DNA of 63,266 nucleotides, the filler included, from Deltaproteobacteria bacterium (GTDB lineage Bacteria > JAUYMQ01), in the NCBI GenBank assembly GCA_030698575.1. It is 13 parts of 13 records of this genome, joined end to end, with 100 filler letters (N's around TTAATTAATTAA, not from the genome) between each part and the next. Parts side by side here need not be neighbours in the genome. Positions count along the whole stretch, not along the records: positions 43,898 to 48,712 come from JAUYMQ010000416.1; 12 more parts are not named here. The stretch is one strand, 5' to 3'. Position numbers and translations under genes: made by a program. The notes beneath the pieces were generated by a model. That model was not told where the DNA came from, ran no database searches, and worked only from the letters and a program-made list of their open reading frames with translations. This document shows positions 4,434 to 58,887 of the stretch, in pieces (within the stretch, counting starts at the first letter, position 1; each line of letters starts with the position of its first letter).

Positions 4434-6191
4434 ATGAGCTACACGGTCCTTGCGCGCAAATGGCGCCCGCGGCGCTTCTCTGAAGTGCTCGGCCAAGATC
4501 ACGTCACCCGTAGCCTCAAGAACGCCATCGCATCCGGCCGCATCGCCCACGCCATCCTGCTCACCGGTCCCCGCGGGGTGGGCAAGACCTCCATCGCCCG
4601 CATCTTCGCCAAGTCGCTCTGTTGCGAGCGCGGCCCCACCGCCGATCCCTGTGATGAGTGCCGGCCCTGCCGAGAGATCGCCGAAGGATCCGCCATCGAC
4701 GTCCAGGAGATCGACGGCGCGTCGAACCGCGGCGTGGAGAACGTCCGCGAGCTGCGTGAGAGCGTGAAGTACACTCCGGCCTCGTTGCGCTTCAAGGTGT
4801 ACATCATCGACGAAGTTCACATGCTGACGACAGAGGCCTTCAATGCCCTCCTGAAGACCCTCGAAGAGCCCCCGGATCACGTGAAGTTCATCTTCGCGAC
4901 CACCGACGTTCACAAGCTGCCGGCAACGATCCTCTCGCGGGTGCAGCGCTACGACCTCTCACGCATTCACACACGGGACATCGCGGCCAAGCTCGCCGAG
5001 ATCTCCGCGAGCGAGAAGATCGAGGCCGACGGCCCGGCGCTGGCGGCCGTGGCGCGCCAGTCGGAAGGGTGCATGCGCGACGCCCTGACGATTCTCGACC
5101 AGCTTGTCGCCTACACGGACGGCAAGATTCATGAGAGCGAGGTCCGGGAGGCGCTCGGTCTCATTGACCGTAACCTTGTTCTCGATCTGGCACGGACGGT
5201 GATCGCCGCCGATCCCAGGGCGTGTCTGGAGGGCCTCCGACAGCTCGATGCGCAGGGGGCCGACGCCAGGCGAACGGTCCGCGAACTCCTGGGGCTGCTG
5301 CGGGATCTCGTGGTGCTGGTCACGCTCGAGGCGCCGGAGAAGGTGATCGACGCGCCCGAGGCGGAGCTCGAACGGATGCGCGCGATGGTCGGCGGCGTCC
5401 AGCCCGAAACGCTGCATGCCCTCTTCGATCTGTTCCTCCAGTCCGACCAGGAAATCGAGCTTGCCTCGCAGCCCTTTCTCGTCTTTGAAATGGCGGTGCT
5501 GAAGGCGGCCCATCTTCGCCCGCTCCTGCCGATCTCCGAACTCCTGAGCCGCTTTGCTGATCTCGAGAAGGGCCTGCCCGCCTCGCCGCCGCCCGCTCCG
5601 GCGCGGGCGCCAGGGAACGTCGGCGGCGGTTCGGGAAAGGTAAAAAGCGTCGGACCCGGCGCACCTCGACCCTCCACGCCGGCGCCCACCCGGAAAGCAA
5701 GCGACACGGTTCCGCCGATCTCGGACGAAGACATTTCCGACAACGACGATCTGGATCACGCGCTGCCGGAAGAGGCGCAGGAGGAGCACGCCAGTTCGCC
5801 CTGGGGCCGCTACCTGGCGCACGTGGGCGCCCGGGCGCCGCTGCTTGCCTCGATCCTGGCCCACGGCCGCTTCGCCGGTATGGACGACACCACCCTGCGC
5901 GTGCATTTCAGGGTGGGGCTTCACGGTGACATGCTGGGCGACAAGGCGGCGCTGGCGGCGGAGCTGGCCAAGGAGTGCTTCGGGCGGCAGCTGAAAGTGA
6001 TCGCGGTGTCTGCTCCCGCGGAGGGGGAAGTGACGCCGAAAAAGGCGGTCGAGGCCCGCCGCGAGGTGCGCGAGCGTGAAAGCGATCGCGAGCGCGCGCT
6101 CAAAAAGGAAGCTCTCGAGCACGAGGCGATCAAGCAGGCGAAGCGCATCCTCGGCGGCGAGATCAAGGAGATCAAGACTTTCGGCGCCTAG
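4434..6191 (+). CDS. dnaX: DNA polymerase III subunit gamma/tau
   Basis: MSYTVLARKWRP, Walker A GPRGVGKT, Cys zinc cluster, EIDGASNRGV, IIDEVHML, NALLKTLEEPP. Confidence 0.98.
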   Translation: MSYTVLARKWRPRRFSEVLGQDHVTRSLKNAIASGRIAHAILLTGPRGVGKTSIARIFAKSLCCERGPTADPCDECRPCREIAEGSAIDVQEIDGASNRGVENVRELRESVKYTPASLRFKVYIIDEVHMLTTEAFNALLKTLEEPPDHVKFIFATTDVHKLPATILSRVQRYDLSRIHTRDIAAKLAEISASEKIEADGPALAAVARQSEGCMRDALTILDQLVAYTDGKIHESEVREALGLIDRNLVLDLARTVIAADPRACLEGLRQLDAQGADARRTVRELLGLLRDLVVLVTLEAPEKVIDAPEAELERMRAMVGGVQPETLHALFDLFLQSDQEIELASQPFLVFEMAVLKAAHLRPLLPISELLSRFADLEKGLPASPPPAPARAPGNVGGGSGKVKSVGPGAPRPSTPAPTRKASDTVPPISDEDISDNDDLDHALPEEAQEEHASSPWGRYLAHVGARAPLLASILAHGRFAGMDDTTLRVHFRVGLHGDMLGDKAALAAELAKECFGRQLKVIAVSAPAEGEVTPKKAVEARREVRERESDRERALKKEALEHEAIKQAKRILGGEIKEIKTFGA

Positions 6192-6238
6192 CGCTACGTT
6201 CAGCGACGGCGCGGTCCGACAGGCAAAAGGAAGAGCGA

Positions 6239-6553
6239 ATGCAAGGCCAGATGAAGAACCTCATGAAGCAGGCGCAGCAGATGCAGGCGAAGCTCGCCAA
6301 GGTGCAGGAGGAGCTCAAGGGGCGCGAAGTCGAGGCGACGTCGGGGGGCGGGATGGTCACCGCAGTGGTGAACGGCGCGCAGGAGGTTCTCTCGATCAGG
6401 GTCGAGCGCGACATCGTGAACCCGGACGACGTCGAGATGCTGCAGGATCTGGTCCGGGCGGCGGTGAACGAGGCGTTGAAGAAGTCGCGGGAGATGGTCT
6501 CCGAGGAGATGGGAAAGATCACTGGCGGGCTCGGTATTCCGGGGCTGACGTAA
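6239..6553 (+). CDS. ybaB: YbaB/EbfC nucleoid-associated protein
   Basis: MKQAQQMQ..., SGGGMVT, DVEMLQDLV; dnaX-ybaB-recR synteny. Confidence 0.97.
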   Translation: MQGQMKNLMKQAQQMQAKLAKVQEELKGREVEATSGGGMVTAVVNGAQEVLSIRVERDIVNPDDVEMLQDLVRAAVNEALKKSREMVSEEMGKITGGLGIPGLT

Positions 6554-6554
6554 A

Positions 6555-7154
6555 ATGGCGCACCCCGGGCCCATCGCACGCCTGATCGAGCAGTTCCAGA
6601 AGCTTCCGGGCATCGGGGAGAAGACCGCCACGCGGCTCGCCTATCACGTGCTCAAGAGCGCGCCCGTCCTCGCCCAGGGACTCGCTGAGGCAATCCGGCG
6701 CGTCAAGGAAGAGGTGGTGCTCTGCCGGTCCTGCTGGAACCTGACCGACGCCGATCCCTGCGCGATCTGCCGGGACGATCGGCGCGACCCGCTCCAGATA
6801 TGCGTCGTCGAGGAGCCGCCCGATCTTCTTGCCATCGAGCGGACGGGAAAGTTCCGCGGCCACTTCCATGTTCTGCACGGGGCGCTCTCGCCACTCGACG
6901 GAATCGGGCCGGACGATCTGCATTTTGGCGAGTTGCTCGATCGTCTCGAGAAGCTCGGCAAGAAGTGTGAGGTCATCGTCGCGACGAATTTGAACGCCGA
7001 CGGTGAGGCCACGGCGCTCTACCTGGCCCGCATTCTGAAACCGATCGGCTACCGCGTGACGCGGCTCGCCCAGGGAATTCCCACGGGGGGCGATCTCGAA
7101 TACGTCGATCCCCTCAGTATCGCGAAGAGCCTGGAAAACCGCCGGGAGCTGTGA
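6555..7154 (+). CDS. recR: Recombination mediator RecR
   Basis: LPGIGEKTA HhH, C4 zinc finger, HVLHGALSPLDGIGP, Toprim EGEATA-like motif. Confidence 0.98.
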   Translation: MAHPGPIARLIEQFQKLPGIGEKTATRLAYHVLKSAPVLAQGLAEAIRRVKEEVVLCRSCWNLTDADPCAICRDDRRDPLQICVVEEPPDLLAIERTGKFRGHFHVLHGALSPLDGIGPDDLHFGELLDRLEKLGKKCEVIVATNLNADGEATALYLARILKPIGYRVTRLAQGIPTGGDLEYVDPLSIAKSLENRREL

Positions 7155-7336: not shown

Positions 7337-7436
7337 NNNNNNNNNNNNNNNNNNNNNNNNNNNNNNNNNNNNNNNNNNNNTTAATTAATTAANNNNNNNN
7401 NNNNNNNNNNNNNNNNNNNNNNNNNNNNNNNNNNNN
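7337..7436. other. Artificial contig spacer (first of 12)
   Basis: 44 N + TTAATTAATTAA + 44 N; others at 10471, 13698, 19258, 22317, 28004, 31912, 39966, 43798, 48713, 55279, 58788 (each 100 nt). Confidence 0.99.
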
Positions 7437-10470: not shown

Positions 10471-10582
10471 NNNNNNNNNNNNNNNNNNNNNNNNNNNNNN
10501 NNNNNNNNNNNNNNTTAATTAATTAANNNNNNNNNNNNNNNNNNNNNNNNNNNNNNNNNNNNNNNNNNNNGGTTTCTCGAGC

Positions 10583-10763: not shown

Positions 10764-12164
10764 GTGAAACGCAAGAAGCCCTGGGGCGGACGCTTCAAGA
10801 TGGACACCGACCGGATGGTCGAGGCCTTCACTTCCTCGCTTGCATTCGATCGGAACCTCGCCGGCGCCGACATCCGCGGCTCGATCGCGCACGCCCGCAT
10901 GCTGGCGAAGCAGAAGATCATCACCGCGAAGGACGCCCGAGCCATCATCCGCGGGCTCGAGGAAATCCGGCGGGAGATCGACTCGGGGGGGTTCCCGTGG
11001 CGCGAGGACCTCGAGGACATCCATATGAACATCGAGGCGCGCCTCATCGAGAAGACCGGCGAGGCCGGCAAGCGGCTGCACACCGCGCGAAGCCGCAACG
11101 ACCAGGTGGCCACCGACCTGCGCCTCTACTTGAAGGAGCGGCTGGCTGCGATCGACGCGGCCGCCGGCGCGCTGCAGAAAGCACTCATCGGCCAGGCCAA
11201 ACGTCATCTCGGGGCCATCATGCCGGGCTACACGCATCTGCAGCAGGCCCAGCCGGTGCTTTTCTCGCATCACCTCATGGCCTACGTCGAAATGCTCGGG
11301 CGCGACCGGGGGCGGCTGCGCGACGCTTTCGCGCGCGCCGACGTGCTGCCGCTCGGTGCGGGAGCGCTGGCGGGAACGCCCTTCCCGATCGATCGCGCCT
11401 ACGTGGCCAAGCTTCTGGGTTTCTCGAAAGTGGCGGAGAACAGCATCGACGCCGTGAGCGACCGCGATTTCGCCGTCGAGTTCCTCTCGGCGGTGGCGCT
11501 GCTCATGGTGCACCTTTCGCGTTTTTGCGAGGAGCTGGTGCTCTGGTCGACGACCGAGTTCGGCTTCGTCGAGCTGTCCGACGCTTTCTGCACGGGCTCG
11601 AGCATCATGCCCAACAAAAAGAACCCCGACGTGGCCGAGCTGGTGCGCGGGAAGACGGGGCGCGTCGTCGGCGGACTCGTGAGCCTGCTGACAACCCTCA
11701 AGGGGCTGCCGCTCTCCTATAACAAGGATCTTCAGGAAGACAAAGAGCCCGTCTTCGACGCGGCCGACACGGCGGAGCAGAGCCTTCTCATCCTGGCGCA
11801 GGCTGTCGCGACGATGGCTGTGCATGCCGAGCGAATGCGCGCGGCGGCCTCCGGTGGTTTTCTCACCGCCACCGACGCGGCGGATTATCTGGTGGAGAAG
11901 GGCGTGCCCTTCCGCGAAGCGCACCACTTGGTCGGCGGGCTGGTCGCCCACTGCATCGACGCGGGACGCGCGCTCGACGATCTGACGGCGGCCGAACTCC
12001 GGAAGTTCTCGCCGAAATTTGGGGCCGATGCCGCCAGGCGGCTCACCGCCGAAAGTTCCGTCGCCAGCCGCAAGTCGACCGGCGGCACGGCGCGCGCCAC
12101 GGTGGCCGCCGCCATCCGTAAGTCGGAACGAACGCTTTCAAAGCTCAAACCCCTCCCGATCTAG
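10764..12164 (+). CDS. argH: Argininosuccinate lyase
   Basis: WGGRF, EDIHMNIE, HTARSRNDQ, MPGYTHLQ, GSSIMPNKKNPD, YNKDLQEDKE. Confidence 0.98.
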   Translation: MKRKKPWGGRFKMDTDRMVEAFTSSLAFDRNLAGADIRGSIAHARMLAKQKIITAKDARAIIRGLEEIRREIDSGGFPWREDLEDIHMNIEARLIEKTGEAGKRLHTARSRNDQVATDLRLYLKERLAAIDAAAGALQKALIGQAKRHLGAIMPGYTHLQQAQPVLFSHHLMAYVEMLGRDRGRLRDAFARADVLPLGAGALAGTPFPIDRAYVAKLLGFSKVAENSIDAVSDRDFAVEFLSAVALLMVHLSRFCEELVLWSTTEFGFVELSDAFCTGSSIMPNKKNPDVAELVRGKTGRVVGGLVSLLTTLKGLPLSYNKDLQEDKEPVFDAADTAEQSLLILAQAVATMAVHAERMRAAASGGFLTATDAADYLVEKGVPFREAHHLVGGLVAHCIDAGRALDDLTAAELRKFSPKFGADAARRLTAESSVASRKSTGGTARATVAAAIRKSERTLSKLKPLPI

Positions 12165-12209
12165 CGCCCGCGCGCACCGCGGACGCCGGGGGGGAACCGG
12201 GGGACACGC

Positions 12210-12743
12210 ATGCTTCGCTCGCTCGTAATGGCGGTCTCACTCCTTCTCGCCTGCGGGGGCTTCTGGGCCTGCGGCCGCAAGTCTGCCCCGCGACTACCCG
12301 AGGGGGAGCAGCTGCGCGTCCAGGGAAAGGGCTTCGAGGCGCCCATCAACGTCTATAGCCCCTACGAGGAAGAGCTGGAGCAGATCAGGGAAACGGGCGA
12401 CACCCTCGACCCGGGCGTGGAGGAATACGCACTGCCCGGCGACAAGCCCGATTTGGTGGTCGAACCTCCCGAGAGCGCCCAGGGCACGATCCGGCAGCGC
12501 GCACCCGCCGAGATCGAGGAGGAACTCGAGGTCGGTGAAGTGGCGCCGCCGTCCGGGGACAGGCCGGAAACGGATACGACCACCGGCGCCGCGCCAACGA
12601 CCGACCCGACCCGGGGACTGCGCCGGGGTGTGGAGGATCTGCTTCGATCGGAAGAGAAGCAGTCGCCCGAAGCCGATTACTCGCCTACCGATCAGGGCGG
12701 GCTTCCTCCATCGCCCGGGAGCCCGCTGGAAGGCGGCTTCTGA
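12210..12743 (+). CDS. LptM/LppL(YifL)-like lipoprotein with long acidic tail
   Basis: Signal peptide then ACGRKSAPRLPE, like the CGxKGPLxxP motif; position between argH and lysA. Confidence 0.65.
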   Translation: MLRSLVMAVSLLLACGGFWACGRKSAPRLPEGEQLRVQGKGFEAPINVYSPYEEELEQIRETGDTLDPGVEEYALPGDKPDLVVEPPESAQGTIRQRAPAEIEEELEVGEVAPPSGDRPETDTTTGAAPTTDPTRGLRRGVEDLLRSEEKQSPEADYSPTDQGGLPPSPGSPLEGGF

Positions 12744-12806
12744 AAGGCCTGGGCGCGGGATGCGCAGTCCGGGGATCACCACACGGCCCCTCGCGGGAAA
12801 GGGATC

Positions 12807-13697
12807 ATGCACCATTTCGAGGAAAAGAACGGCGAGCTCTACTGTGAGGACGTCCCTGTTCGCCGCGTGGCGGACGAGGTGGGAACGCCCTTCTATCTCT
12901 ACAGCCACGCCACGCTCACCCGGCACTACCGCGTGTACGCCGAGGCCTTCACGGGCATTGATCACCTGATTTGTTACGCGATGAAGGCCAACTCGAACCT
13001 GGCCCTCCTGCGCCTCTTCGCGAGCCTCGGCGCCGGCTTCGACATCGTTTCCGGCGGCGAGCTTCACCGCGTGATGCGGGCGGGTGGCGATCCGCGCAAG
13101 GTCGTCTATTCGGGCGTGGGCAAGGCGGCCGAGGAGATCGACCAGGCGCTCGACGCCGGCATCCTCTGCTTCAACGTGGAGTCGCGGGAAGAGCTGGGAG
13201 TTCTGAACGACCGCGCGCGGCGCAAGGGCGTGCGGGCGCCGGTGGCGATTCGGGTGAATCCCGACGTCGATCCCAAGACGCATCCTTACATCTCGACAGG
13301 GCTCAAGAAGAGCAAGTTCGGCGTGCCGATGACGCAGGCGCTGGACATTTACCGGCAGGCAGTCGCGCTCGCCCATCTGGAGGTCATCGGGCTCGACTGC
13401 CACATCGGTTCTCAGATCACCGAGACGGGCCCCTTCAGCGATGCGCTCAAGCGGCTCCGCGATCTCGTGCACCAGCTTCGCGACGCGGGAATCGCGCTGC
13501 GGCTGCTCGACATCGGCGGCGGCCTCGGCATTCCCTACGAGGACGAGGAGCCGCCGCAGCCCGCCGAATACGTTCGCGCCATCGCCGAGCCGTTGCGCGA
13601 GTTCACGTCGCTCGGCTGCAAGATCGTCCTGGAGCCGGGCCGTGTCATCGCCGGGAACGCGGGCATCCTCGTGACGCGCGTGCTGTATCGCAAGGAG
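12807..13697 (+). CDS. lysA: Diaminopimelate decarboxylase (partial)
   Basis: [16 protein letters not shown] (PLP Lys), [25 protein letters not shown]. Confidence 0.97.
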
Positions 13698-13797
13698 NNN
13701 NNNNNNNNNNNNNNNNNNNNNNNNNNNNNNNNNNNNNNNNNTTAATTAATTAANNNNNNNNNNNNNNNNNNNNNNNNNNNNNNNNNNNNNNNNNNNN

Positions 13798-14006
13798 AGG
13801 AGGCCCTCTTCAAGGCCATGGGCACCGGCTGGCCCCGGGGCGGAAAGCTCACGGACGTCGAACTCCATCAGGGCGCCGGCGGGCCGCGCATCGAGGTCAC
13901 CGGCGCGGCACGCGTAATTCTCGACGGCCGGCGCGTCAGCGAGATTGCGGTCACCACCTCCTGGGAGGGCAACCTGGCGCTCTGCCTGGTGCTGCTGCTC
14001 CGCTAG
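13798..14006 (+). CDS. acpS: Holo-ACP synthase-like phosphopantetheinyl transferase, C-terminal fragment
   Basis: EALFKAMGTG...DVEL...GGPRI pattern; 5' cut by contig edge. Confidence 0.7.
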
Positions 14007-14039
14007 GATGCGCGATCGGCCGCGCGAGGGGAATCACAC

Positions 14040-15263
14040 ATGCCGGATGAACGACCGGAACCGAATGCGGCGGGCGCGCCGCGGCCCCCGCTGCCGCGCG
14101 CGAAGCGGATCCTGTTCGCCGCCGTCACCGCCCTGATCTCGATCTCGCTCCTGCTGGTGGCCGGCGAGATCGGCATCCGGATGTACCGCGCGAAGACGAA
14201 GCTCCCTTCACCCCGGAGCTTCATCGAGAATCCCCACGGAACCGGATCCTACCGCCTCCGGCCCCATCTCGATGCCGCCACCCGCGTCGCGGGGAAAACG
14301 ATTGCTATCAGGACCAATGCCCACGGCATGCCCTGGCGCGAGGTGGCCCGGGAGAAGCCGGGCGGCGTCCGGCGCGTGGCCATCGTGGGTGACAGCTTCG
14401 CGCAAGGGCTCTGGGCCGAATCGGCGGAGAAGGGGCTTGCCGGTGTGTTCGCATCCATCGTCGAGCCCGGCGGCTTCGAGGTTCTGAATTTCGGCGTGTC
14501 AGGCTACGGGCTGGCCGACGTGGCGCTGCAGATCCGCGAGGAGGTGCTGGGCTTCGAGCCGGCCTTCATCGTGCTCGTCTTCTACGCGGGAAACGACTTC
14601 ATCGACACCTACCTGGGGCTCGAGCGCTACGGGGTCAAGGACGGAGCGCTGGTGCACGACGACGCGGTCGTGCGTGCCAAGGTTCCGCCGGAGTTCAACC
14701 CCGCGGCCGTCCCGTTGCACGAGCGCCACGGGCCCTGGAAGCGCTGGACCCGCTCCCTCCGGCCGCACGTGAAGCTCTATGGCGCCTTGCGCGGGATCAG
14801 CCGCCGGAAGTCCGAGCCGTTGCTGCAGGAGTTCAAGGTCCGGCAGAGCTTCACCGGGCGGACCTTCTGGTCACAGAAGCCCTACCCGCCGATTGCGAAG
14901 CAGGCCAGGGACGTGACGCTCGAGACCCTGGCCGCCATTTCGGAGACCTGCCGCGAGAACGACGTCACGCTCCTCGTCGCCGCACTGCCTTTCAAGGAGC
15001 AGGTGAGCAGCTACACGCAGCGCGGGTCCGACTTCGACATCGGGCGACCGCAGAGTTTCCTGCGGGAGTTCTGCGAAGAGCGAGGGATTCCCTATCACGA
15101 TCTGCTCCCTGCGATGCGCCACTACGTGCGCAGCAACCAGCGGAGCGTCTTCGTGACCGACGAGATTCACTTAAACGACGAGGGGCACGCGGTGGCGGGC
15201 GAGGAGATGGCGATCTGGTTCAGGGAGACGCTCGATCGCCTTTCCGCTCCCGGAGCCATGTGA
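14040..15263 (+). CDS. Membrane-anchored SGNH/GDSL hydrolase-like protein
   Basis: N-terminal TM; GDSF block I, NFGVSGYG, GNDF block III, DEIHLNDEGH block V. Confidence 0.88.
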   Translation: MPDERPEPNAAGAPRPPLPRAKRILFAAVTALISISLLLVAGEIGIRMYRAKTKLPSPRSFIENPHGTGSYRLRPHLDAATRVAGKTIAIRTNAHGMPWREVAREKPGGVRRVAIVGDSFAQGLWAESAEKGLAGVFASIVEPGGFEVLNFGVSGYGLADVALQIREEVLGFEPAFIVLVFYAGNDFIDTYLGLERYGVKDGALVHDDAVVRAKVPPEFNPAAVPLHERHGPWKRWTRSLRPHVKLYGALRGISRRKSEPLLQEFKVRQSFTGRTFWSQKPYPPIAKQARDVTLETLAAISETCRENDVTLLVAALPFKEQVSSYTQRGSDFDIGRPQSFLREFCEERGIPYHDLLPAMRHYVRSNQRSVFVTDEIHLNDEGHAVAGEEMAIWFRETLDRLSAPGAM

Positions 15264-15831
15264 TCGCCTCCTCCAGGTGATCGTCTCCCCAGAAAAGCTC
15301 GTCCCCGGCCAGGAAGCTCGGCGCGCCAAAGATGCCGAGCGCCTGCGCCTTTTCGGTCTGGGCCCGGAGCGCGTGCTTGACGTCATCCGCGCCCGCGCGG
15401 GCCAGCGCCTCATCCCCGACCCGCCCGATCTCCGCCAGGATTTCCTTCACGACCGCTGCGTCGCCGATCTCCCGATCCTCGACGAAATTCGCCCGGAAGA
15501 CCGCGCGCGTGAACGACGGGCACCACCCCTCGTCCGAAGCGACGACCGCCGTCCGCGCGGCCAGGAGCCCGTTGCGCGGGAAGCGGGTGGGGCGGCGAAA
15601 GGGGAGGCCGTAGGCATTCGCGCGCCGCTCGAGATCGCGCCACATGTAGCGCCCCTTGGCGGGGTAGATGTTGAAGGGGGAGTCGTTCCACCCCTGCGCC
15701 GCGAAGATGGGGCCGAGCAGGAAGGGGCGCCAGCGCACGCTGATCCCTTCACGGGCGGCGACGTCCTCGATGCGCATGACGGTGAGATAGGAGTAGGTGC
15801 TTGCGAACTCGTACCAGAACTCAAGCTCCAC
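15220..15831 (-). CDS. 2-hydroxychromene-2-carboxylate isomerase / kappa-GST (DsbA-fold) protein
   Basis: EFWYEFASTYSY, WRPFLLG, GIFGAPSF, LFWGDD; GTG start overlaps upstream stop. Confidence 0.92.
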   Translation of the reverse strand: MELEFWYEFASTYSYLTVMRIEDVAAREGISVRWRPFLLGPIFAAQGWNDSPFNIYPAKGRYMWRDLERRANAYGLPFRRPTRFPRNGLLAARTAVVASDEGWCPSFTRAVFRANFVEDREIGDAAVVKEILAEIGRVGDEALARAGADDVKHALRAQTEKAQALGIFGAPSFLAGDELFWGDDHLEEAITWLRERKGDRASP

Positions 15832-19240: not shown

Positions 19241-19357
19241 ACCAGCGCCTCGTGGCGNNNNNNNNNNNNNNNNNNNNNNNNNNNNNNNNNNNNNNNNNNN
19301 NTTAATTAATTAANNNNNNNNNNNNNNNNNNNNNNNNNNNNNNNNNNNNNNNNNNNN

Positions 19358-22314: not shown

Positions 22315-22416
22315 GGNNNNNNNNNNNNNNNNNNNNNNNNNNNNNNNNNNNNNNNNNNNNTTAATTAATTAANNNNNNNNNNNNNNNNNNNNNNNNNNNN
22401 NNNNNNNNNNNNNNNN

Positions 22417-28003: not shown

Positions 28004-28103
28004 NNNNNNNNNNNNNNNNNNNNNNNNNNNNNNNNNNNNNNNNNNNNTTAATTAATTAANNNNNNNNNNNNNNNNNNNNNNNNNNNNNNNNNNNNNNNNN
28101 NNN

Positions 28104-31911: not shown

Positions 31912-32105
31912 NNNNNNNNNNNNNNNNNNNNNNNNNNNNNNNNNNNNNNNNNNNNTTAATTAATTAANNNNNNNNNNNNNNNNNNNNNNNNNNNNNNNNN
32001 NNNNNNNNNNNCTCCTGGGACTGGCGTGGTGCCCACGCCCTGCTGTGTTTCCCCTCCCGCGCGGGCGGGGCCGCTCGGGGGCGCCGTCCGTTGGGAGAGT
32101 GCTAA

Positions 32106-39958: not shown

Positions 39959-40065
39959 GGCGCTTNNNNNNNNNNNNNNNNNNNNNNNNNNNNNNNNNNN
40001 NNNNNNNNNTTAATTAATTAANNNNNNNNNNNNNNNNNNNNNNNNNNNNNNNNNNNNNNNNNNNN

Positions 40066-41686: not shown

Positions 41687-43797
41687 ATGCTGAACCGGAT
41701 GATCGAGTTCTCTTTGCGCAATCGCCTCTTTGTGATTGCCGCGTCCATCATGATCGTCATTTACGGCGGGATCGTCGCGGCGAATCTCCCGGTTGATGTG
41801 TTCCCGGATCTCAACCGGCCCACGGTCACTATTCTGACGGAAGCCCCCGGCCTCGCGCCTGAGGAGGTCGAGACCCTGGTCACGTGGCCGCTGGAAACCT
41901 CTCTCAATGGCGCGCCCGACGTTCGTCGTGTGCGCTCCAGTTCGGGCATCGGGCTTTCCGTGGTTTTCGTAGAGTTTGACTGGGGCACCGATATTTATCG
42001 TGACCGTCAGTTGATTCAGGAAAGGCTTCAGATAGCGAGGGAACAGCTCCCCGAAGGAGTGGCTCCGGTCATGGGGCCGATCTCATCGATCATGGGCGAA
42101 ATCATGCTCATCGGACTGTCGAGTGATAGCGGAACTGTTTCGCCACGGGCTCTGCGGTCTCTTGCGGACTGGACCATCCGGCAGCGGCTTCTCACCATCC
42201 CCGGTGTTTCCCAGGTTATCCCGATCGGCGGAGGCGTGAAGCAGTACCAGGTCCTGGTCTCCCCTCAGAAGCTCGCGTTCTACGACGTAAGTTTGCAGGA
42301 GGTTGAGGAAACCGCATCGAAATCGCAGATGAACACGGCGGGGGGTTTCCTGGAAACCGCGAATCGCGAGGCGCTCATCCGTAACATCGGTCGGACCAGC
42401 TCCATCGATGACATCGGGGATTCCGTCATTCGAATGAGGGGCGAGACGCCCCTCCTTCTCAAGGACGTCGCGACCGTCAAGATAGGTGACCGCGTGAAGC
42501 GGGGGGACGCCGGGGTGAACGGCGGGCCGGCGGTGATCCTTTCCGTTCAGAAGCAGCCGGGCGTGGATACCATCTCGCTGACGCGGAAGGTTGAAGGCGC
42601 GCTTGACGAGATAGGGGCGTCCCTGCCGAAAGGCGTCGAGATAAAACTCCTCTTCAAGCAAGCGAACTTCATTCAGGCCGCGATTTCGAACGTGGAAGAG
42701 GCCATCCGGGACGGCGCCATCATGGTCGTCATCGTCCTGTTTCTATTCTTGCTCAACGTCCGGACGACGCTCATCACCTTGACCGCGATCCCCCTGTCTT
42801 TTCTGGCCACGGCGATCGTCTTTCATTATCTCGATATCACCATCAACACGATGACCCTCGGCGGTCTAGCCGTGGCCATAGGCATGGTCGTCGACGACGC
42901 CATCGTGGACGTCGAAAACGTCTTCAGGCGGTTGCGTGAAAACCGCCACAAGCCGAAACCGAGGCCCCCCCTGAGGGTCATCGCCAGCGCCTCGGCCGAA
43001 GTCAGAAATTCCATCCTGTTTGCGACCCTCTTGATCATCCTCGTGTTCATTCCCCTCTTCGGGCTGGGTGGAATCGAGGGGCGTCTCTTCGCGCCAATCG
43101 GAATCGCCACCATCATCTCGATGATCGCATCGTTCATCGTCTCGCTGACGGTGATTCCGGCGCTTTGCTCATATCTCCTTCCGCAAATGCGACGCATGGC
43201 GAGCGAGTCAGACGGCTGGCTTGTCCGCAAGTTGAAAGAATTCGACCGGAGGTTCGTTCTCGGCCCGGCGCTCCGCCGGCCGGGCCTGGTTGTTCTCATA
43301 GCAACGATTCTTGTGGTCAGCGGCCTCGCTCTCTATCCCCTCATGGGGAAGGAGTTCCTTCCGGAATTCAACGAGGGTACCGTGACCGTGAACTTGTTGG
43401 CGGCGCCGGGCACGTCGCTCAGCGAGTCGAATCGGATCGGAAGCGTGGCCGAGAAGCTGCTGCTCAAGATACCGGAAGTCGTCTCGACGGGACGGAGGAC
43501 TGGGCGTGCTGAGCTGGACGAGCACGCGGAGGGAGTCCACTACACGGAGATCGATCTGGATCTACGCGGGTCGGAGAGGTCCAGAGAAGCCATTCTGGAG
43601 GATATTCGATCACGCCTGTCCCAGATTCCGGGCACGGCCTTGAACGTCGGCCAGCCGATTTCCCACCGTCTGGATCACATGCTTTCGGGCGTCCGCGCGC
43701 AACTCGCGGTCAAAGTTTTCGGCCCCGACCTCGATGTCTTGAGGGCGAAGGCGGCGGAGATCGAGGCGGTGATGGCGCCCACTCCAGGGATCGTCGA
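41687..43797 (+). CDS. CzcA/CusA-family heavy-metal RND permease (partial)
   Basis: [52 protein letters not shown]. Confidence 0.96.
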
Positions 43798-43897
43798 NNN
43801 NNNNNNNNNNNNNNNNNNNNNNNNNNNNNNNNNNNNNNNNNTTAATTAATTAANNNNNNNNNNNNNNNNNNNNNNNNNNNNNNNNNNNNNNNNNNNN

Positions 43898-44195
43898 CGG
43901 GGACAACAGCTACTACGTCACCGACGGCAAAGTGACGATCGCGCTGCGGCCGTGGGACATGGTGAAGTACCGCGGGCTGATGGCGGGACTCGACCACTTC
44001 GGCTTCCAAGTAGAGAACCTCGAAGAGGCCAAGAAGGATATCGAGAATCTTCCCACCACCGCGCCCGGCTCCAACGCGAGAAAAATCACTATCGGCCGCG
44101 ACGGCGAGACGCGGCAAACAAATCTCCAAGGCTGCAAGCTCTGCAAGCACGCGCTGGCGGATCCGGATGGGGTGTTGCTGGATTTGACGGACTGA
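43898..44195 (+). CDS. VOC/glyoxalase-like protein, C-terminal fragment
   Basis: GLDHFGFQVENLEE and DPDGVLLDL motifs. Confidence 0.8.
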
Positions 44196-44439
44196 AAGTT
44201 CGCTGACGTTCAAACGATTCTGCAGTTACCGATCGAGCACACCGTCCCCCCTCGACAAAGTTCACAATTGGAGCTTCGCGGAACAAGCGAGACGCGAGTC
44301 GGGAAACGCAGGCGAGGCAAGATAAGCCCGTCGATCAATTCGCGTAAATGAAAAAGTACTCAGCGCCGGGTATTCTCCATGTTTTGAATCGAGGCGGGAA
44401 GGGAGTTCGGAGTCCGGCGGATGGAGATTGAGCAAAGCT

Positions 44440-44600
44440 TAAGCTGTGCAGGTATATTGACGCTATACTGACCGAGGATATTGGTTATACCTGTGAATAA
44501 AAATAGTTGACAACCCATTGATCGAAAGAGTAATTCTCGCATTACGGTAATGTCTGTGAAGTTAATATCACTGGTCAGTATACTCATTGGTTATACGGCA
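44440..44600 (+). other. AT-rich attI-like recombination/regulatory region
   Basis: GTATACT-CATTG-GTTATAC simple-site geometry (44578-44596); ATTGGTTATAC repeated at 44480 and 44586; LexA-like CTGT-N8-ATAG at 44491-44506; TTGACA at 44507. Confidence 0.45.
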
Positions 44601-44773
44601 CCTCTGCATCGACTCAATGCATGATTCGTTAATCGCGCTCGCGGAGCGACTCATCGCGAATGGACGCGCCGGCAGGGACGATCGAATCGAGGCCGAACTA
44701 CGCCAACAAAAGGCCGCGCTCTATCTCGCCTATCGTCCCGATCCGAGTCCATGCCAATTGTGAGCTCTCCACC

Positions 44774-46843
44774 ATGATCCGAGCGTTCGTCTCCTCGACC
44801 TACCGCGATCTCAAGGACCACCGCGCGTACGTCATCGACAGGCTCTTGCGCGGCGGCATCTTCGTCGACCCGATGGAGAAGTGGACGGCCGCGGACGACG
44901 AGCCGAAAGCCCTCTCGCAGGAGCGGGTCCGGGACTGCCAGCTCTGCATCCTGCTCGTCGGCTTCCGGCGCGGCCACGTACCGGAAGCCGAGGTGCGAAG
45001 CGTGACCCAGCTCGAATACGCGGAGGCGCTGAGGCGCGGCATCGAGGTGCTGGTGTTCATGGCGAACGAGCAGGCCGACTGGCCTGTCGAATCGATCGCC
45101 GCGCTCGGCGGCGATCCTGAAATCGTGCGCTGGCGGGCCGAGCTTAAGGAGCACAAGACCGTCGGGTTCTTCACTCCGCGGCCTGAATCGATCGATGTGG
45201 ACGCGGCCGTCAACCGGTGGCTGCAGGAGCGCCTGCCGGCGCAAGGCGAGGGCAAGCCTGATGACTTGGACGCGGCTATACACACGGTCGAGATCCGGGC
45301 GCACAGCAACTCCGACGGCGTGCTGCTCGTCTGGCGCACGGAGCGGCCGATCCCGAATTGCCTCGGCTTCGCGCTCTACGGCGAGAGGCTCGGGGACGCG
45401 GGCATAACGCGCTACGTCATGAAGAACCGCTTGGTACTCGAGCGCTCGATGAAAGTGGGCTCCGGCTTTCTAGACAGCACGAAGAACCCGATCCAGAATT
45501 TCAGGTGGCTGGCGCGCGTGCCGGGTGAGGCCCGGTACCGTGTCGCACCCGTGCTCGGCGCGCCCGGCAATCTCGCCGAACCGAGCGAGCAACAGGCCGG
45601 GAGCGCCTGGACAGGCTGGGTCTCTCCCCTCGCGGGCGGCAACCCCGGGTGCCGTGCCTTCTTCAGCGCTCCACTCTGGTCGGCGACTCGGTTACGCCAG
45701 GGTCGCGCGGACGTGGACGAGCACGTGCTGCGCGGTAGCCGGGGACGCGCCTCTGAGTTGCGCAGCAACCTAGGCAGTGGGCTGCGCCGCCGGATCCTGG
45801 AGTTGCTCACTGCCGCGAAGGCGGCGGACCGGCACGTATACGCTGTCCTGTCCGGCCTCGACGATCCGGACTTGGCGCGCGCGCTCGCGGCCCTGGGCCA
45901 AAACGCCCGCGTCGTCCTTCCTGCGGCCGCGTTCGGCGGGCGTGTCACCAAGCCGCTGAAGGACGCCAGCGTTCGCGTCTATGCGTGCGAGAAAGCCGCC
46001 GCCACGGCGCGCAGCAACTTCCTCGTGTCGTGCGACCGGTGGGGAACGCCGCTCAGCGTCTTGACCGGAAGCGCCGCGTGGACCATCGACGCGCTGTGCC
46101 TGCGCTCGAACAACGCCGTCTTCATGGAATCGGTGCCTCTTGCGCGCGCTTATCTCGACCGCTGGGAGGATCTCGCGTGTCCCGCCGGGGTCCGCGGGCT
46201 GCGCCGCGAGCGAATCACCCGCTCGCCTGTCCACATTCGCGAGGCCGAGATGGCGCTGACGCTCTGGAACACTCCCACGCGGGGCAACGGAGACCTGCGG
46301 GATGCCAAGCGTCTCATTCGGGGCGCCCGGCAGGGCGTGCTCTTTGCGGTGAACCGGGCGCGCGTCGCCCCGGAGATGATGGAAGAGATATTAAGTCGGC
46401 TCGCCGACAAGGATCTCTTCATCGAGGGCTTGTCGTGGTCCGAGGGCCGCAGCGGCTACGAATACCGTGTCAACGACGACCGCCGCGTCATTACGCTGGC
46501 CGGTTCAAAACCTGGAATCACCAGCACGATCGTCCTCGTGGATCCATTCGGGCCACATCCGGTCGTGATGACCGGATCCCACGATCTCGGTGCCGCCACG
46601 AGCTCGAGGCGCTACGCGGACCTCCTGATCATCGAGAACGTGCCGGGCCTCGCGGCCGAGTACGCAGTGCACCTTGTGGGCATGTTCGACCACCTGCGGT
46701 TCCGGACGTGGCAGGCCACCGCGCGCCGGACGAGAGCCCTCGTGTTGCTGAAGCCCACTCCTGCATGGCAGGACCGCTACTTCAAATCCGCGAAGCGCAG
46801 CGAGTTCAACTTCTTCTTCGGATCCCTCTCGCCGCGGCTGTAA
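44774..46843 (+). CDS. DUF4062 domain fused to a phospholipase D-like region lacking both HxK motifs
   Basis: N-term FVSSTYRDL...ILLVG.R.G...SVTQLEY (DUF4062); C-term VLTGSAAWT..NN and VDPFG.HPVVMTGSH.LG..LLII PLD-like repeats. Confidence 0.8.
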   Translation: MIRAFVSSTYRDLKDHRAYVIDRLLRGGIFVDPMEKWTAADDEPKALSQERVRDCQLCILLVGFRRGHVPEAEVRSVTQLEYAEALRRGIEVLVFMANEQADWPVESIAALGGDPEIVRWRAELKEHKTVGFFTPRPESIDVDAAVNRWLQERLPAQGEGKPDDLDAAIHTVEIRAHSNSDGVLLVWRTERPIPNCLGFALYGERLGDAGITRYVMKNRLVLERSMKVGSGFLDSTKNPIQNFRWLARVPGEARYRVAPVLGAPGNLAEPSEQQAGSAWTGWVSPLAGGNPGCRAFFSAPLWSATRLRQGRADVDEHVLRGSRGRASELRSNLGSGLRRRILELLTAAKAADRHVYAVLSGLDDPDLARALAALGQNARVVLPAAAFGGRVTKPLKDASVRVYACEKAAATARSNFLVSCDRWGTPLSVLTGSAAWTIDALCLRSNNAVFMESVPLARAYLDRWEDLACPAGVRGLRRERITRSPVHIREAEMALTLWNTPTRGNGDLRDAKRLIRGARQGVLFAVNRARVAPEMMEEILSRLADKDLFIEGLSWSEGRSGYEYRVNDDRRVITLAGSKPGITSTIVLVDPFGPHPVVMTGSHDLGAATSSRRYADLLIIENVPGLAAEYAVHLVGMFDHLRFRTWQATARRTRALVLLKPTPAWQDRYFKSAKRSEFNFFFGSLSPRL

Positions 46844-46871
46844 GCCGCCTGTGGAGAGAGGGGTCAGATCC

Positions 46872-48380
46872 GAATGGCACTTACTTAAGGATAAGCACCT
46901 GAACTGATTGTTGCAAAAGGCTGGCTCGATGAGCGATAAGGTGGAGTTGCCAAACGCCCACCCATCACTCAAGGAGCCAGCCCGAATGCATGATGCTATT
47001 CGCAACGCACGCGCGCAACAACGACAAGTTCGCTCGCAGGTCCGTGAAAGCGATGCCTATGGCTTTTTCAATCTGCTGACGGGGCCGGAATTGTTCGACA
47101 AAGTCGAGTCGTTGTTGCCGCCGCATCGGGAACGGCGATTTCCGCCGACTGAGACGCTGTCGATGTTTCTGGCCCAGGCGCTGAGCGCGGATCGATCCTG
47201 CCAGAAGGCGGTAGACGAGGCGGCGATCAAGCGCCTGGCCGCAGGACTCACGCCGTGCAGTACGCATACGGGGGCGTACTGCCGTGCGCGTCTGCGCTTG
47301 CCGACGGAAATGGTGCATACGCTGGCGGGATACGTAGGCCAATGTGTGACGGCACACGCACCCGATGCCTGGCACTGGCGGGGTCGCCCGGTGCGCTTGG
47401 TGGACGGCACGACGCTGGTGATGCCCGACACCCCGGCCAACCAGGCCGCTTACCCGCAAGCGCGCAGCCAGAAGTCCGGACTGGGCTTCCCGCTGTGTCG
47501 GATGGTGGGCCTGGTGTGCTTGGGAAGTGGCGCCGTGCTCCAAGCCGCAATCGGCCACTATCGGGGCAAGGGCGGCGATGAACAGTCGTTGCTGCGTTCG
47601 ATCCTCGACACCCTGGAACGCGGCGACCTGTTGCTTGGCGATGCGTTCTACGCCACGTATTTCCTGCTGTGCACCTTGCGTGAACGGGGCATCGATGCGG
47701 TGTTTGAACAACACGGTTCGCGCCAACGCACCACGGACTTTCGCTGCGGTCAGCGCCTCGGTGTGCGCGACCACCTGATGCTGCTGCCAAAGCCGGTCAC
47801 CAAACCCGACTGGATGAGCCAGGCCGACTACGAGCAGGCCCCGCAGAGCCTGACTGTGCGTGAGCTGCGCACCGGGGGCAAGACGCTGGTGACAACGCTG
47901 CTTTGCCCGAAGCTCACCGACAAAGCCGCCTTGAGAGCCCTTTACCGCGACCGCTGGCATGTGGAACTCGATCTACGCAACATCAAGACCACCCTGGGGA
48001 TGGACCGACTGAGCTGCCAGACGCCCGCCATGGCGATCAAGGAAATCTGGGTCTACCTGCTCGCCTACAATCTCATCCGCCTGATGATGGCCCAGGCCGC
48101 CTGGCTGGCCCATCGACTGCCGCGCCAACTCAGCTTCAAGCACACCGTGCAAATCTGGATCGCCTGGACTTACCACGCCAACCGAATCGACGACGACAAG
48201 CTCTATGGCTTGTTTGTCCTCATCGCCCAACAACACGTCGGTGAGCGCCCCGGCCGTATCGAGCCCCGCGCGCTCAAACGACGACTTAAACCCTATCCGT
48301 TGCTTACCATACCGCGCGCGACTGCACGCGCGCATGTCCGAGAACATGGTCACCCGGAAAAGCTTAAGTAAGTGCCATTC
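46872..48380 (+). mobile_element. Complete IS4-family insertion sequence (1509 bp)
   Basis: Perfect 18-bp terminal IRs GAATGGCACTTACTTAAG (46872-46889, 48363-48380); 11-bp target duplication GGGTCAGATCC (46861-46871, 48381-48391). Confidence 0.95.
46986..48371 (+). CDS. IS4-family DDE transposase
   Basis: VDGT, GDAFY, YRDRWHVELDLRNIK (YREK motif), LLAYNLIR; AAGGAG RBS; stop inside right IR. Confidence 0.95.
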   Translation: MHDAIRNARAQQRQVRSQVRESDAYGFFNLLTGPELFDKVESLLPPHRERRFPPTETLSMFLAQALSADRSCQKAVDEAAIKRLAAGLTPCSTHTGAYCRARLRLPTEMVHTLAGYVGQCVTAHAPDAWHWRGRPVRLVDGTTLVMPDTPANQAAYPQARSQKSGLGFPLCRMVGLVCLGSGAVLQAAIGHYRGKGGDEQSLLRSILDTLERGDLLLGDAFYATYFLLCTLRERGIDAVFEQHGSRQRTTDFRCGQRLGVRDHLMLLPKPVTKPDWMSQADYEQAPQSLTVRELRTGGKTLVTTLLCPKLTDKAALRALYRDRWHVELDLRNIKTTLGMDRLSCQTPAMAIKEIWVYLLAYNLIRLMMAQAAWLAHRLPRQLSFKHTVQIWIAWTYHANRIDDDKLYGLFVLIAQQHVGERPGRIEPRALKRRLKPYPLLTIPRATARAHVREHGHPEKLK

Positions 48381-48563
48381 GGGTCAGATCCTGCTTCTCG
48401 CGCCACTCCAACTCGGTGAGGAAGCAACCGCGTAGCGAGTAATAGGAGTGCCGCGTTTCGGAATCGGTCGTGATCTTGTGCGGGCAGTGATGCGGCGCGC
48501 GGCTCCGATCAGCGAGGCCGCGCCGCCCTCCTCCTCAAACGGCGCTTCTCCAGATCGCGACCT

Positions 48564-48623
48564 TGCCGTATAACCAATAAGGATTGAGACGACTTCAGAA
48601 GTCGTTTCAATCCGGTGTTCAAG
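48564..48623 (+). other. attC-like hairpin
   Basis: TGCCGTATAAC...GGATTGAGACGACTT-CAG-AAGTCGTTTCAATCC...GTT; left end is the reverse complement of the 44586-44600 site. Confidence 0.5.
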
Positions 48624-48812
48624 AAGCCCGTGGTTGAGGCAGCGGCGATCAATATAAGGGTAAAGGTCGTGAAGCGTGGTTTGCGCGGAGGAAAGTGAAG
48701 GTCAGATTGGCCNNNNNNNNNNNNNNNNNNNNNNNNNNNNNNNNNNNNNNNNNNNNTTAATTAATTAANNNNNNNNNNNNNNNNNNNNNNNNNNNNNNNN
48801 NNNNNNNNNNNN

Positions 48813-51743: not shown

Positions 51744-51779
51744 GCGGTCCCCCACCTGTCTTTGCGATCTCCCCAGTCA

Positions 51780-51952
51780 GCGCATGTCATTGCGAGGAGC
51801 GAAGCGACGAAGCAATCCCCTCCGTATTTGCCGGGAGATTGCTTCGTCGGGCCTCCGGCCCTCCTCGCAATGACATGCGCGGCCCGCGGCCCTCCTCGCA
51901 AGGACATGCGGCGGCTAAGCGGCCCTCCTCGCAATGACATGCGCGGCCCGCG
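51780..51952. repeat. Palindromic GTCATTGCGAG..CTCGCAATGAC element with two extra tandem copies of its right arm
   Basis: Hairpin 51780-51880; GGCCCTCCTCGCAA(T/G)GACATGCG repeated at 51857, 51888, 51921. Confidence 0.85.
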
Positions 51953-52031
51953 ACCTGCTTGTCGCCGCCGCCCGATGGGGCTAGGATGAGCAGGTCGCGC
52001 CCGCGGCCGACGGGACGCAGAGGAGCAGCCC

Positions 52032-55278: not shown

Positions 55279-55378
55279 NNNNNNNNNNNNNNNNNNNNNN
55301 NNNNNNNNNNNNNNNNNNNNNNTTAATTAATTAANNNNNNNNNNNNNNNNNNNNNNNNNNNNNNNNNNNNNNNNNNNN

Positions 55379-58625: not shown

Positions 58626-58887
58626 TGCGCGAGACATTTCTCGCGGGCCATTCGAGCTACCGGAGGCAGCGTGATTAGACCTAATGACTTCCGCAAAGAG
58701 AGGCTGACCCCCGAGGTGTTCGCGGGTTAGCCTTGCGGCCAGAGCCGCATCGTGCCGAAGCACGAGCCACTTCTAAACGGGGGTCAGNNNNNNNNNNNNN
58801 NNNNNNNNNNNNNNNNNNNNNNNNNNNNNNNTTAATTAATTAANNNNNNNNNNNNNNNNNNNNNNNNNNNNNNNNNNNNNNNNNNNN

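Follow-up and report, generated by a model that had tools for sequence, protein, structure and literature searches.

The gene at positions 44774-46843 (plus strand) of the stretch of DNA analysed here, a window of 63,266 nucleotides from the genome of a Deltaproteobacteria bacterium (GCA_030698575.1), encodes a protein in which a DUF4062/NIR head is followed by an FN3-like domain, a two-lobed phospholipase D (PLD) fold and C-terminal helices. Both catalytic motifs of the PLD fold have been lost; by structure the protein belongs to the PLD superfamily, but it is not an active HKD enzyme. We consider it moderately probable that the gene is a single-gene abortive-infection NADase which uses the dead PLD module (pseudo-PLD) as its sensor.

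Gene and domain layout

The frame from 44774 to 46843 contains no stop codon before its end and yields 689 residues, in accordance with the intact frame of the original prediction. An in-frame ATG at 44660, which would yield 727 residues, is disfavoured as the start, since the N-termini of the homologues agree with 44774: they lie at MIRAF or a few residues off it, the exceptions being P0006 and P0028 with short extensions. A full-length AlphaFold2 model built from 32 sequences reached a mean pLDDT of 80.3 and a pTM of 0.71. The head comprises residues 1-155 (44774-45238, plus strand), the FN3-like beta-sandwich residues 170-288 (45281-45637, plus strand) and the PLD fold residues 290-655 (45641-46738, plus strand), and a short helical tail lies C-terminal to the PLD fold. 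In a Pfam scan of the 689-residue protein DUF4062 was the only family above threshold, with PLDc_2 (E 0.12) and a tail-sheath family below it; STAND NTPase families, HEAT repeats and domains for secretion or delivery were all absent from the matches.

Loss of both PLD catalytic motifs

PLD chemistry requires paired His and Lys residues. In lobe 1 the H-x-K motif is replaced by R413-S414-N415 (46010-46018, plus strand) and the downstream GSxN motif reads GSAA (residues 432-435). In lobe 2, T583-S584-T585 (46520-46528, plus strand) stands in place of H-x-K, and GSxN reads GSHD (residues 601-604). These are exactly the positions and substitutions which the original prediction had named. The MAFFT alignment and an independent BLASTP pair with the intact relative P0036 (E 2e-56) agree in placing the degenerate stretches exactly under the intact motifs. 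In lobe 1, ARSNFLVSCD..GSAAWT lies opposite GHNKFLVICD..GSQNWT (HNK...GSQN in P0036), and in lobe 2, ITSTIVLVDPFG..GSHDLG lies opposite VHSKVIVVDPFG..GSHNLG (HSK...GSHN in P0036). Neither alignment placed an intact HxK anywhere else in the protein.

The loss that had been predicted for the homologues was found throughout. In an alignment of 153 rows, each of at least 400 residues, H and K are intact in both lobes of 96 rows. None of the 31 DUF4062-bearing rows has the H and K of lobe 1; lobe 2 is covered by 29 of them, again never with both residues, P0030 keeping the His but having Asn for Lys. Taken singly, the H and the K of lobe 1 are each present in 100% of the 96 intact relatives versus 0% of 29 fused members. 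The replacements vary within the fused clade (R, L, A or P at position 413 and D, T, N or E at position 583), and the Asn of both GSxN motifs is lost as well (N435 and N604). Of the pattern HxK(x)4D(x)6GSxN the Asp is kept, D421 in at least 90% of the homologue alignment and D590 invariantly.

The change extends beyond the motifs: of 71 positions with at least 85% conservation among the intact relatives, 23, including R405, Q444, N613, D614 and N616, persist in less than 30% of the fused members. The PLD scaffold was predicted to be kept, and its positions D364, F416, V418, G432, W436, N446, W464, D590, P591 and G601-S602-H603 are indeed conserved. In addition, 28 positions with conservation of at least 90% are peculiar to the fused clade, and Arg occupies 12 of them; R458, R509, R513, R516 and R519 are among the clade-specific residues, as is H595, which is invariant.

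Ratios of nonsynonymous to synonymous substitution rates (dN/dS) were calculated by the Nei-Gojobori method (NG86); pairs at greater distance, in which synonymous sites are saturated, were given no weight. Between the gene in the window and its closest DNA relative (locus L020; 83% amino acid identity, dS 0.54) dN/dS is 0.20 overall, with 0.09 for the head, 0.27 for the FN3-like domain, 0.20 for PLD-N and 0.23 for PLD-C. For a second pair, L001 versus L021, it is 0.165. Because the ratio is low in every domain and 28 clade-specific positions are conserved, the pseudo-PLD is under purifying selection and is not decaying, in line with the expected dN/dS below one.

The FN3-like domain and the PLD fold

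Residues 290-650 of the model were matched by VIA to mouse PLD3 (8v06_A) with a Z score of 27.6 and a root-mean-square deviation (rmsd) of 4.0 Å over 306 aligned residues. Further matches with Z scores of 25-27 are PLD4, vaccinia F13 (about 26), bacterial PLD and phosphatidylserine synthase (25), followed by PPK1 at 21-23; Foldseek matched the PLD module with an E value of 3.9e-10. The solved chains nearest by sequence profile are nuclease-type PLDs, namely mitochondrial cardiolipin hydrolase (4ggj, E 0.003) and Nuc (1byr, E 0.05). Since the protein's own match to PLDc_2 remains below threshold, the assignment rests on homologues with intact HKD motifs, which phmmer relates to it with E values as low as the 1e-40s, and on the predicted fold.

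The FN3-like domain was delimited by the strands of the model, by VIA and by alignment with the stand-alone PLD relatives, whose N-terminus it matches. The VIA matches to residues 168-288 are Ihog (Z 8.5, rmsd 3.1, 102 aligned residues) and titin and neuroglian (Z 7.8). A complex prediction of the head with the FN3-PLD module gave a score of 0.15, the mark being 0.32, which carries no weight either way as to docking of the head on the module.

The DUF4062/NIR head

PF13271 (DUF4062) matches residues 3-85 with an E value of 5.2e-16 and 59 bits, the cut-off being 24.7. The motifs S7-S8-T9 and S76-x-T78-x-x-E81-Y82, which the original prediction had read as kept, are present; S7, S8, T9, S76, T78 and E81, and also F5, are invariant in 28 of 28 full-length homologues, and Y82 is invariant in an alignment of seven sequences. 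E81-Y82 (45014-45019, plus strand) contains the putative catalytic Glu, as suggested by conservation and by the distance of 76 from F5 to E81, which equals that from F11 to E87 in Eva01 as given in the preprint text on that protein (cited below). A profile of the homologues matches the DUF4062 chain of KpSwz (10wc) with an E value of 5e-8 over residues 3-104.

For a separate model of residues 1-300, seven sequences gave a pLDDT of 67.5. A wide VIA search with this model returned TIR-1 of C. elegans (Z 10.2, rmsd 3.2, 128 aligned residues, covering residues 1-153), MilB (Z 9.5), nucleoside deoxyribosyltransferase (NDT; Z 9.3) and the TIR domain of SARM1 (Z 9.2). The modelled head thus has a TIR/NDT-like fold of the flavodoxin type, and both predicted folds are borne out, that of the head by Pfam, profile and VIA and that of the PLD module by VIA. 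A likeness of the 1-300 model to translational GTPases in Foldseek (TM about 0.3, rmsd 11-19 Å) was rejected as a generic arrangement of an alpha/beta domain and a beta-barrel.

Heads on STAND/NLR-like proteins share 43-60% identity with the one described here, and STAND-type NTPase families were found in 29 of 32 head-only matches, which agrees with the earlier statement that DUF4062 usually sits on STAND or repeat sensors. By analogy with its characterised relatives, the protein would be a NADase by its head.

Homologues and history of the fusion

The fusion is not a singleton, a possibility that the original prediction had left open. A word-based search found about 28 full-length proteins of the same architecture, all metagenomic and with identities of 42-83%, together with more distant head-less relatives carrying the Pfam domain PLDc_2. 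An exhaustive phmmer search with residues 165-689 gave 672 cluster representatives at E<=1e-3, most of which are stand-alone proteins of 550-600 residues that start with an FN3-like domain.

A tree of the FN3-PLD module was computed from 86 rows, i.e. the 46 rows not classed as stand-alone and intact and, of the 90 so classed, the first 40 (the other 50 were left out), in a quick IQ-TREE search under LG+G4. In this tree 27 fused rows and P0032 form one clade with an SH-aLRT support of 100; P0032 begins within the FN3 domain and may be truncated. A tree of the heads, built from 16 fused heads and 31 others and rooted like the first at its midpoint, places all 16 fused heads in one clade (SH-aLRT 99). 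The heads nearest to them belong to WD40/nSTAND, TPR/NACHT and SIR2_2 proteins. Both trees fit one fusion event followed by co-divergence; we make no claim about the order of fusion and inactivation. No other head was found on the dead module of the fused clade among proteins of 378-1206 residues, longer and shorter forms not having been searched. This module occurs with DUF4062 or unfused and then possibly truncated (P0032, P0033, P0213 and P0018).

A second lineage of the same FN3-PLD family, of about 830-950 residues (P0073, P0080, P0088, P0094, P0099, P0103 and P0130), has a degenerate lobe 2, with QSR, GSR or LAR for HxK, and a variably intact lobe 1. In some of its members, e.g. P0073, P0080 and P0088, a C-terminal tail rich in Lys is present. 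No Pfam family matches the N-terminal domain of the lineage, which spans about 280 residues, and a search of the Protein Atlas with the N-terminal 300 residues of P0073 gave unnamed clusters only. This domain shares 35-39% identity with the extreme N-termini of the TIR-NB-ARC-TPR proteins P0256-P0261 and 30% with a portion of P0262, a TIR_2/PG_binding_1 protein; judged from these similarities, it looks like an adaptor or an effector-associated domain. The two lineages together hint that the PLD family may have been recruited into NLR-type systems more than once.

Relation to known DUF4062 systems

DUF4062 has recently been described in three preprints, which are represented here by the parts of their text available to us. 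In Swarozyc, DUF4062 is a TIR-like NADase, and KpSwz requires E97 as well as its auxiliary domain (AUX), which binds the phage portal; NAD+ is depleted (Osinski et al. 2026, 10.64898/2026.05.01.722283). Evangelion consists of a DUF4062 core and a variable AUX region, and defence by Eva01 is abolished by F11A, by E87A and by truncation of AUX (Ibarra-Chavez et al. 2026, 10.64898/2026.06.25.731849). A third study renames DUF4062 as NIR and describes it as a modular effector found on Avs2, on HEAT repeats (Vulcan) and in Vesta, with E108 of PsAvs2 and E98 of Vulcan each needed for defence (Le Mouellic et al. 2026, 10.64898/2026.09.04.749371).

The protein studied here would resemble Swarozyc, Evangelion and Vulcan in its working and probably belongs to none of them. 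With Swarozyc it shares a build on one polypeptide, in which a DUF4062 head of the TIR-like NADase family comes first and a putative sensor forms the C-terminal region, the heads being homologous, and the abortive-infection logic described for KpSwz is the one that we propose. Yet KpSwz of Klebsiella pneumoniae (PDB 10wc, 11cq and 11cv) has, according to the preprint text, about 340 residues with a helical stalk and the portal-binding AUX. No sequence match to it extends past residue 104, and the C-terminal 520 residues here are the FN3-like domain and the pseudo-PLD. The likeness to Evangelion lies in the single-gene layout of core and auxiliary region and in the residue pairs F11 and E87-Y88 of Eva01 versus F5 and E81-Y82, with identical spacing. 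Eva01 differs, by its description in the preprint text, in that its AUX is short and contains no recognisable domain; the system is plasmid-borne in staphylococci. None of 12 matches in the plasmid collection had the fused architecture found here. PsAvs2, Vulcan and Vesta, as the preprint text presents them, show one effector domain being swapped among sensors, and a C-terminal ligand-binding domain is proposed for VstA. The proposed sensor here is a dead PLD and not a STAND/TPR module, HEAT repeats or the VstA domain, and the alkaline phosphatase that accompanies the NIR protein in Vesta is absent. Since the stalk and AUX of Swarozyc, HEAT repeats and a STAND NTPase are all missing, the protein does not belong to Swarozyc, Vulcan or Avs.

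The C-terminal part is also related to stand-alone FN3-PLD proteins, found in Dyella, Nevskia and Variovorax among others and annotated as "phospholipase D-like domain-containing protein". They are homologous over residues ~170-689 at 25-36% identity and share the FN3 domain, the two-lobed PLD and the C-terminal helices. Unlike the fused proteins they have HxK...GSxN intact in both lobes (96 rows); no DUF4062 head is present, and their length is about 550-600 residues. PADLOC and NCBIfam gave only weak PLD-level matches for these intact relatives (DrmC, ZacB, PbeA and DpdK), far under the cut-offs.

For the 689-residue protein itself NCBIfam gave no usable match, and the architecture, which the original prediction did not recognise as a named system, has none in PADLOC either. 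The texts of the three preprints make no mention of a PLD partner of DUF4062, though figures and supplements (e.g. Fig. S1D/E of Osinski et al., "auxiliary enzymatic domains") may show one. In the literature searched on DUF4062, inactive PLD and PLD-like NADase defence sensors, no DUF4062-PLD fusion was found. New, therefore, would be the type of sensor, a dead PLD on a NIR/DUF4062 effector, which is undescribed in the text of these preprints; a DUF4062 NADase with variable sensors is already known from them.

Distribution and genomic contexts

In a pattern-based scan of 185,579 species with one genome each, which can miss members, 19 loci were confirmed and two of them are fused. Their hosts are metagenome-assembled genomes (MAGs) of the Vicinamibacterales (L001) and the Alphaproteobacteria (L002). 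The 80 metagenome loci that were kept comprise four full-length genes, one cut at residue 382 and 75 with the head only. No match was obtained in the phage collection searched.

At the nucleotide level the window resembles L020 only over 44769-46849, the similarity ending within 6 nucleotides of the gene on either side, and the flanks differ among the window, L001/L021, L002, L020, L022 and L023. The gene thus moves alone. Neither a partner gene nor a cognate immunity gene is conserved across these six contexts, and the unit is therefore the single gene.

In L001 the homologous gene is part of a cluster of conflict genes: the gene for the type VI immunity protein TsiV (5985-6929) lies upstream, and a TIR_2 protein (11901-13262) and an nSTAND1 NTPase (13175-15517) follow immediately downstream; the latter two may be a separate two-gene system. 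L021 is 95% identical to L001 in this gene and has downstream open reading frames (ORFs) of like size. In L002 the gene lies between ligA and catabolic amidohydrolase/HpaB genes, L023 is flanked by a methyltransferase and an RNase_H_2 exonuclease, and the flanks of L020 and L022 contain nothing recognisable.

The neighbourhoods of five intact stand-alone relatives are heterogeneous, with a LuxR-type STAND regulator, thioredoxin, ImpA_N, RibD_C, an alpha/beta hydrolase, PanE, TPR and RtcB/RlaP, and thus give no clue to the ancestral function. In a Nevskia MAG (L003, 7790-9861) the intact FN3-PLD relative lies directly 3' of an RtcB RNA ligase and an RlaP RNA-repair nucleotidyltransferase, and in Dyella choica (L009) it adjoins an ImpA_N gene of a type VI secretion system (T6SS). 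These contexts are too few and too mixed for an assignment of function.

Proposed function and alternatives

As DUF4062 is shown in the preprint texts to be a TIR-like NADase effector with variable C-terminal sensors, a sensor-effector reading is the natural one. The FN3-like domain and the pseudo-PLD would then occupy the place of the STAND-NTPase and repeat sensors, or of the AUX region of Swarozyc and Evangelion. In the uninfected cell the protein would be inactive. A ligand derived from the infection would be bound by the remodelled, Arg-rich PLD module, upon which the heads would associate with each other and hydrolyse NAD+, with E81 as the presumed catalytic Glu, and growth would be arrested. 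By analogy with the characterised systems we infer a role in anti-phage defence and take the PLD module as the likely sensor. As to its ligand, a first guess would be a molecule that carries phosphate, for instance a nucleotide or the end of a nucleic acid. The weak affinity to nuclease-type PLDs (Nuc and 4ggj, PLD3 and PLD4 by structure, DrmC below threshold) points to such a ligand, and the gain of twelve conserved Arg would also be in keeping with it. The alternative, a phage protein as the trigger, is equally compatible with what the preprint texts report for KpSwz and Vulcan.

Several observations weigh against a NADase with a pseudo-PLD sensor. HMMER places the catalytic Glu of KpSwz opposite Q79, two residues ahead of E81, and the equivalence of E81 thus rests on the E-Y motif and the Eva01 spacing. 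This Glu is position 82 of the KpSwz chain and would equal E97 only if the chain begins at residue 16. The Z scores of the head (8-10) are only modestly over background, and the head model is mediocre. Lost along with the catalytic residues are candidate substrate contacts, among them R405, N435, Q444, N604, N613, D614 and N616, whose conservation among the intact relatives is 98-100%. The case for retained binding of the ancestral substrate is thereby weakened, and a role that is only structural becomes conceivable; if the PLD module does bind a ligand, it need not be that substrate. PADLOC-DB v2.0.0 contains no family that matches the 689-residue protein at E<=1. Finally, defence-type neighbours occur in one of six independent contexts (L001/L021), L002 lying between ligA and catabolic genes and the remaining contigs being too short for a judgement.

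Such a structural role would make the pseudo-PLD and the FN3-like domain a mere scaffold that dimerises or oligomerises the head or localises it, for instance to the membrane or to nucleic acid, with the trigger being sensed by the head or by an unlinked partner. The best-matching solved two-lobed PLDs do include dimers ("human PLD3 homodimer structure"), and with 23 of 71 conserved positions replaced the classical substrate pocket may be gone. Yet none of the six contexts offers a conserved partner gene, the 28 clade-specific positions with their 12 Arg suggest a specific binding surface, and in those DUF4062 systems that have been characterised, sensing falls to the C-terminal region, as the preprint texts describe for Vulcan and for the portal-binding AUX of KpSwz. 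A scaffold alone is hence unlikely in our view. Still less can be said for a PLD module that remains enzymatic through non-canonical residues such as H595, H603 or the new Arg and turns the protein into a two-enzyme effector. The invariant H595, which is specific to the fused clade, and the retained H603 and D590 speak for it, but where H and K once stood the residues vary within the clade, N435 and N604 are lost, and paired His and Lys are needed; we give this reading hardly any credence. A function outside immunity, as a regulated enzyme of NAD+ or nucleotide metabolism or as an interbacterial toxin with a regulatory or targeting PLD-like part, would agree with the lack of defence-type neighbours on the window contig and in L002, with TsiV upstream in L001 and with T6SS ImpA_N beside one intact relative. 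However, the protein begins directly with the head, Pfam reveals no domain for secretion or delivery, and an adjacent cognate immunity gene is not conserved. The patchy distribution, the unrelated flanks and the heads shared with NLR-like proteins fit immunity, and the bacterial DUF4062 proteins tested so far are, according to the preprint texts, all defensive. A role outside immunity thus appears distinctly improbable.

As an integrated decoy the pseudo-PLD would mimic an active host FN3-PLD enzyme targeted by phages for inhibition or modification, and binding of the phage factor would activate the NADase. The origin of the dead module lies in a large family of stand-alone, intact FN3-PLD proteins (672 clusters; 96 of 153 rows intact), for which the nearest named matches, themselves weak, are Nuc, a nuclease, and DrmC of DISARM, and the second lineage with its degenerate lobe 2 shares an N-terminal domain with TIR-NB-ARC-TPR proteins. 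On the other hand, the neighbourhoods of the intact relatives are heterogeneous, and the fused clade, distant at about 30-35% identity and changed in much of the conserved surface, would be a poor mimic. To our knowledge, phage inhibitors of such PLDs have not been reported. A decoy of this kind is accordingly improbable. A broader scheme would have the FN3-PLD family inactivated and wired into NLR-type immunity repeatedly, once with a DUF4062 head and once with the N-terminal domain of TIR-NB-ARC-TPR proteins, the pseudo-PLD being either an integrated decoy or a receptor for a phosphodiester-bearing signal. We regard this as quite unlikely; if true, it would be a bacterial counterpart of the integrated decoys of plant NLRs, made from a dead enzyme. 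Of these readings we favour a NADase whose pseudo-PLD senses the infection.

The contig and further sequence features

The window consists of 13 contigs joined by 12 artificial spacers of the form N-run/TTAATTAATTAA/N-run, at 7337-7436, 10471-10570, 13698-13797, 19258-19357, 22317-22416, 28004-28103, 31912-32011, 39966-40065, 43798-43897, 48713-48812, 55279-55378 and 58788-58887. The spacers at 43798-43897 and 48713-48812 are the left and right boundaries of the contig to which the gene belongs (43898-48712, 4815 nucleotides), a length that agrees with the one listed for the record of this protein (P0001). Because the spacers separate different contigs, gene order across them carries no meaning. 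The genes for HlyD, a truncated AcrB, NfeD and SPFH and all genes past 48812 were therefore rejected as neighbours, since they lie on other contigs. The apparent truncation of the 720-residue AcrB fragment (41687-43849) is the end of a contig, and the same holds for other ORFs truncated at spacers.

On its own contig the gene is preceded by the 3' end of an ORF to which no assignment was made (43899-44192) and by a stretch of 570 nucleotides with lower GC content. A scan for promoters and terminators gave nothing convincing immediately upstream of the gene and found no terminator. An insertion sequence (46861-48391) begins 17 nucleotides past the stop codon. It has terminal inverted repeats of 29 nucleotides (46861-46889 and 48363-48391, 90% complementary) and an ORF for a DDE_Tnp_1 transposase (46908-48371); a target-site duplication is not obvious. 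An AT-rich inverted repeat of 21 nucleotides (90%; 44580-44600 and 48564-48584) encloses the gene and the insertion sequence, and a second inverted pair of 19 nucleotides (44464-44482 and 44564-44582) lies inside the upstream region of lower GC. These repeats could mark the termini of a small mobile element or serve as operator sites, or they could be fortuitous. Nothing of the flank that bears them recurs at L020, the closest homologous locus. On another contig of the window, a unit of 36 nucleotides is present in three direct copies spaced 31-33 nucleotides apart (51856-51955), with inverted copies at 51771-51806; these units look like intergenic repeats of the REP type.

Implications

Not until 2026 were DUF4062/NIR NADases recognised as immune effectors, and what their many C-terminal regions sense is the question that now faces the field. 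The family described here adds a candidate defence gene from soil Acidobacteriota and Alphaproteobacteria, which is absent from the PADLOC models and from the plasmid and phage collections searched. It offers a candidate sensor with a well-understood ancestral fold from which catalysis has been cleanly removed and to which new clade-specific residues, among them 12 Arg, have been added. It is thus a tractable case for how a pseudoenzyme becomes an immune receptor and for what such a receptor comes to recognise.

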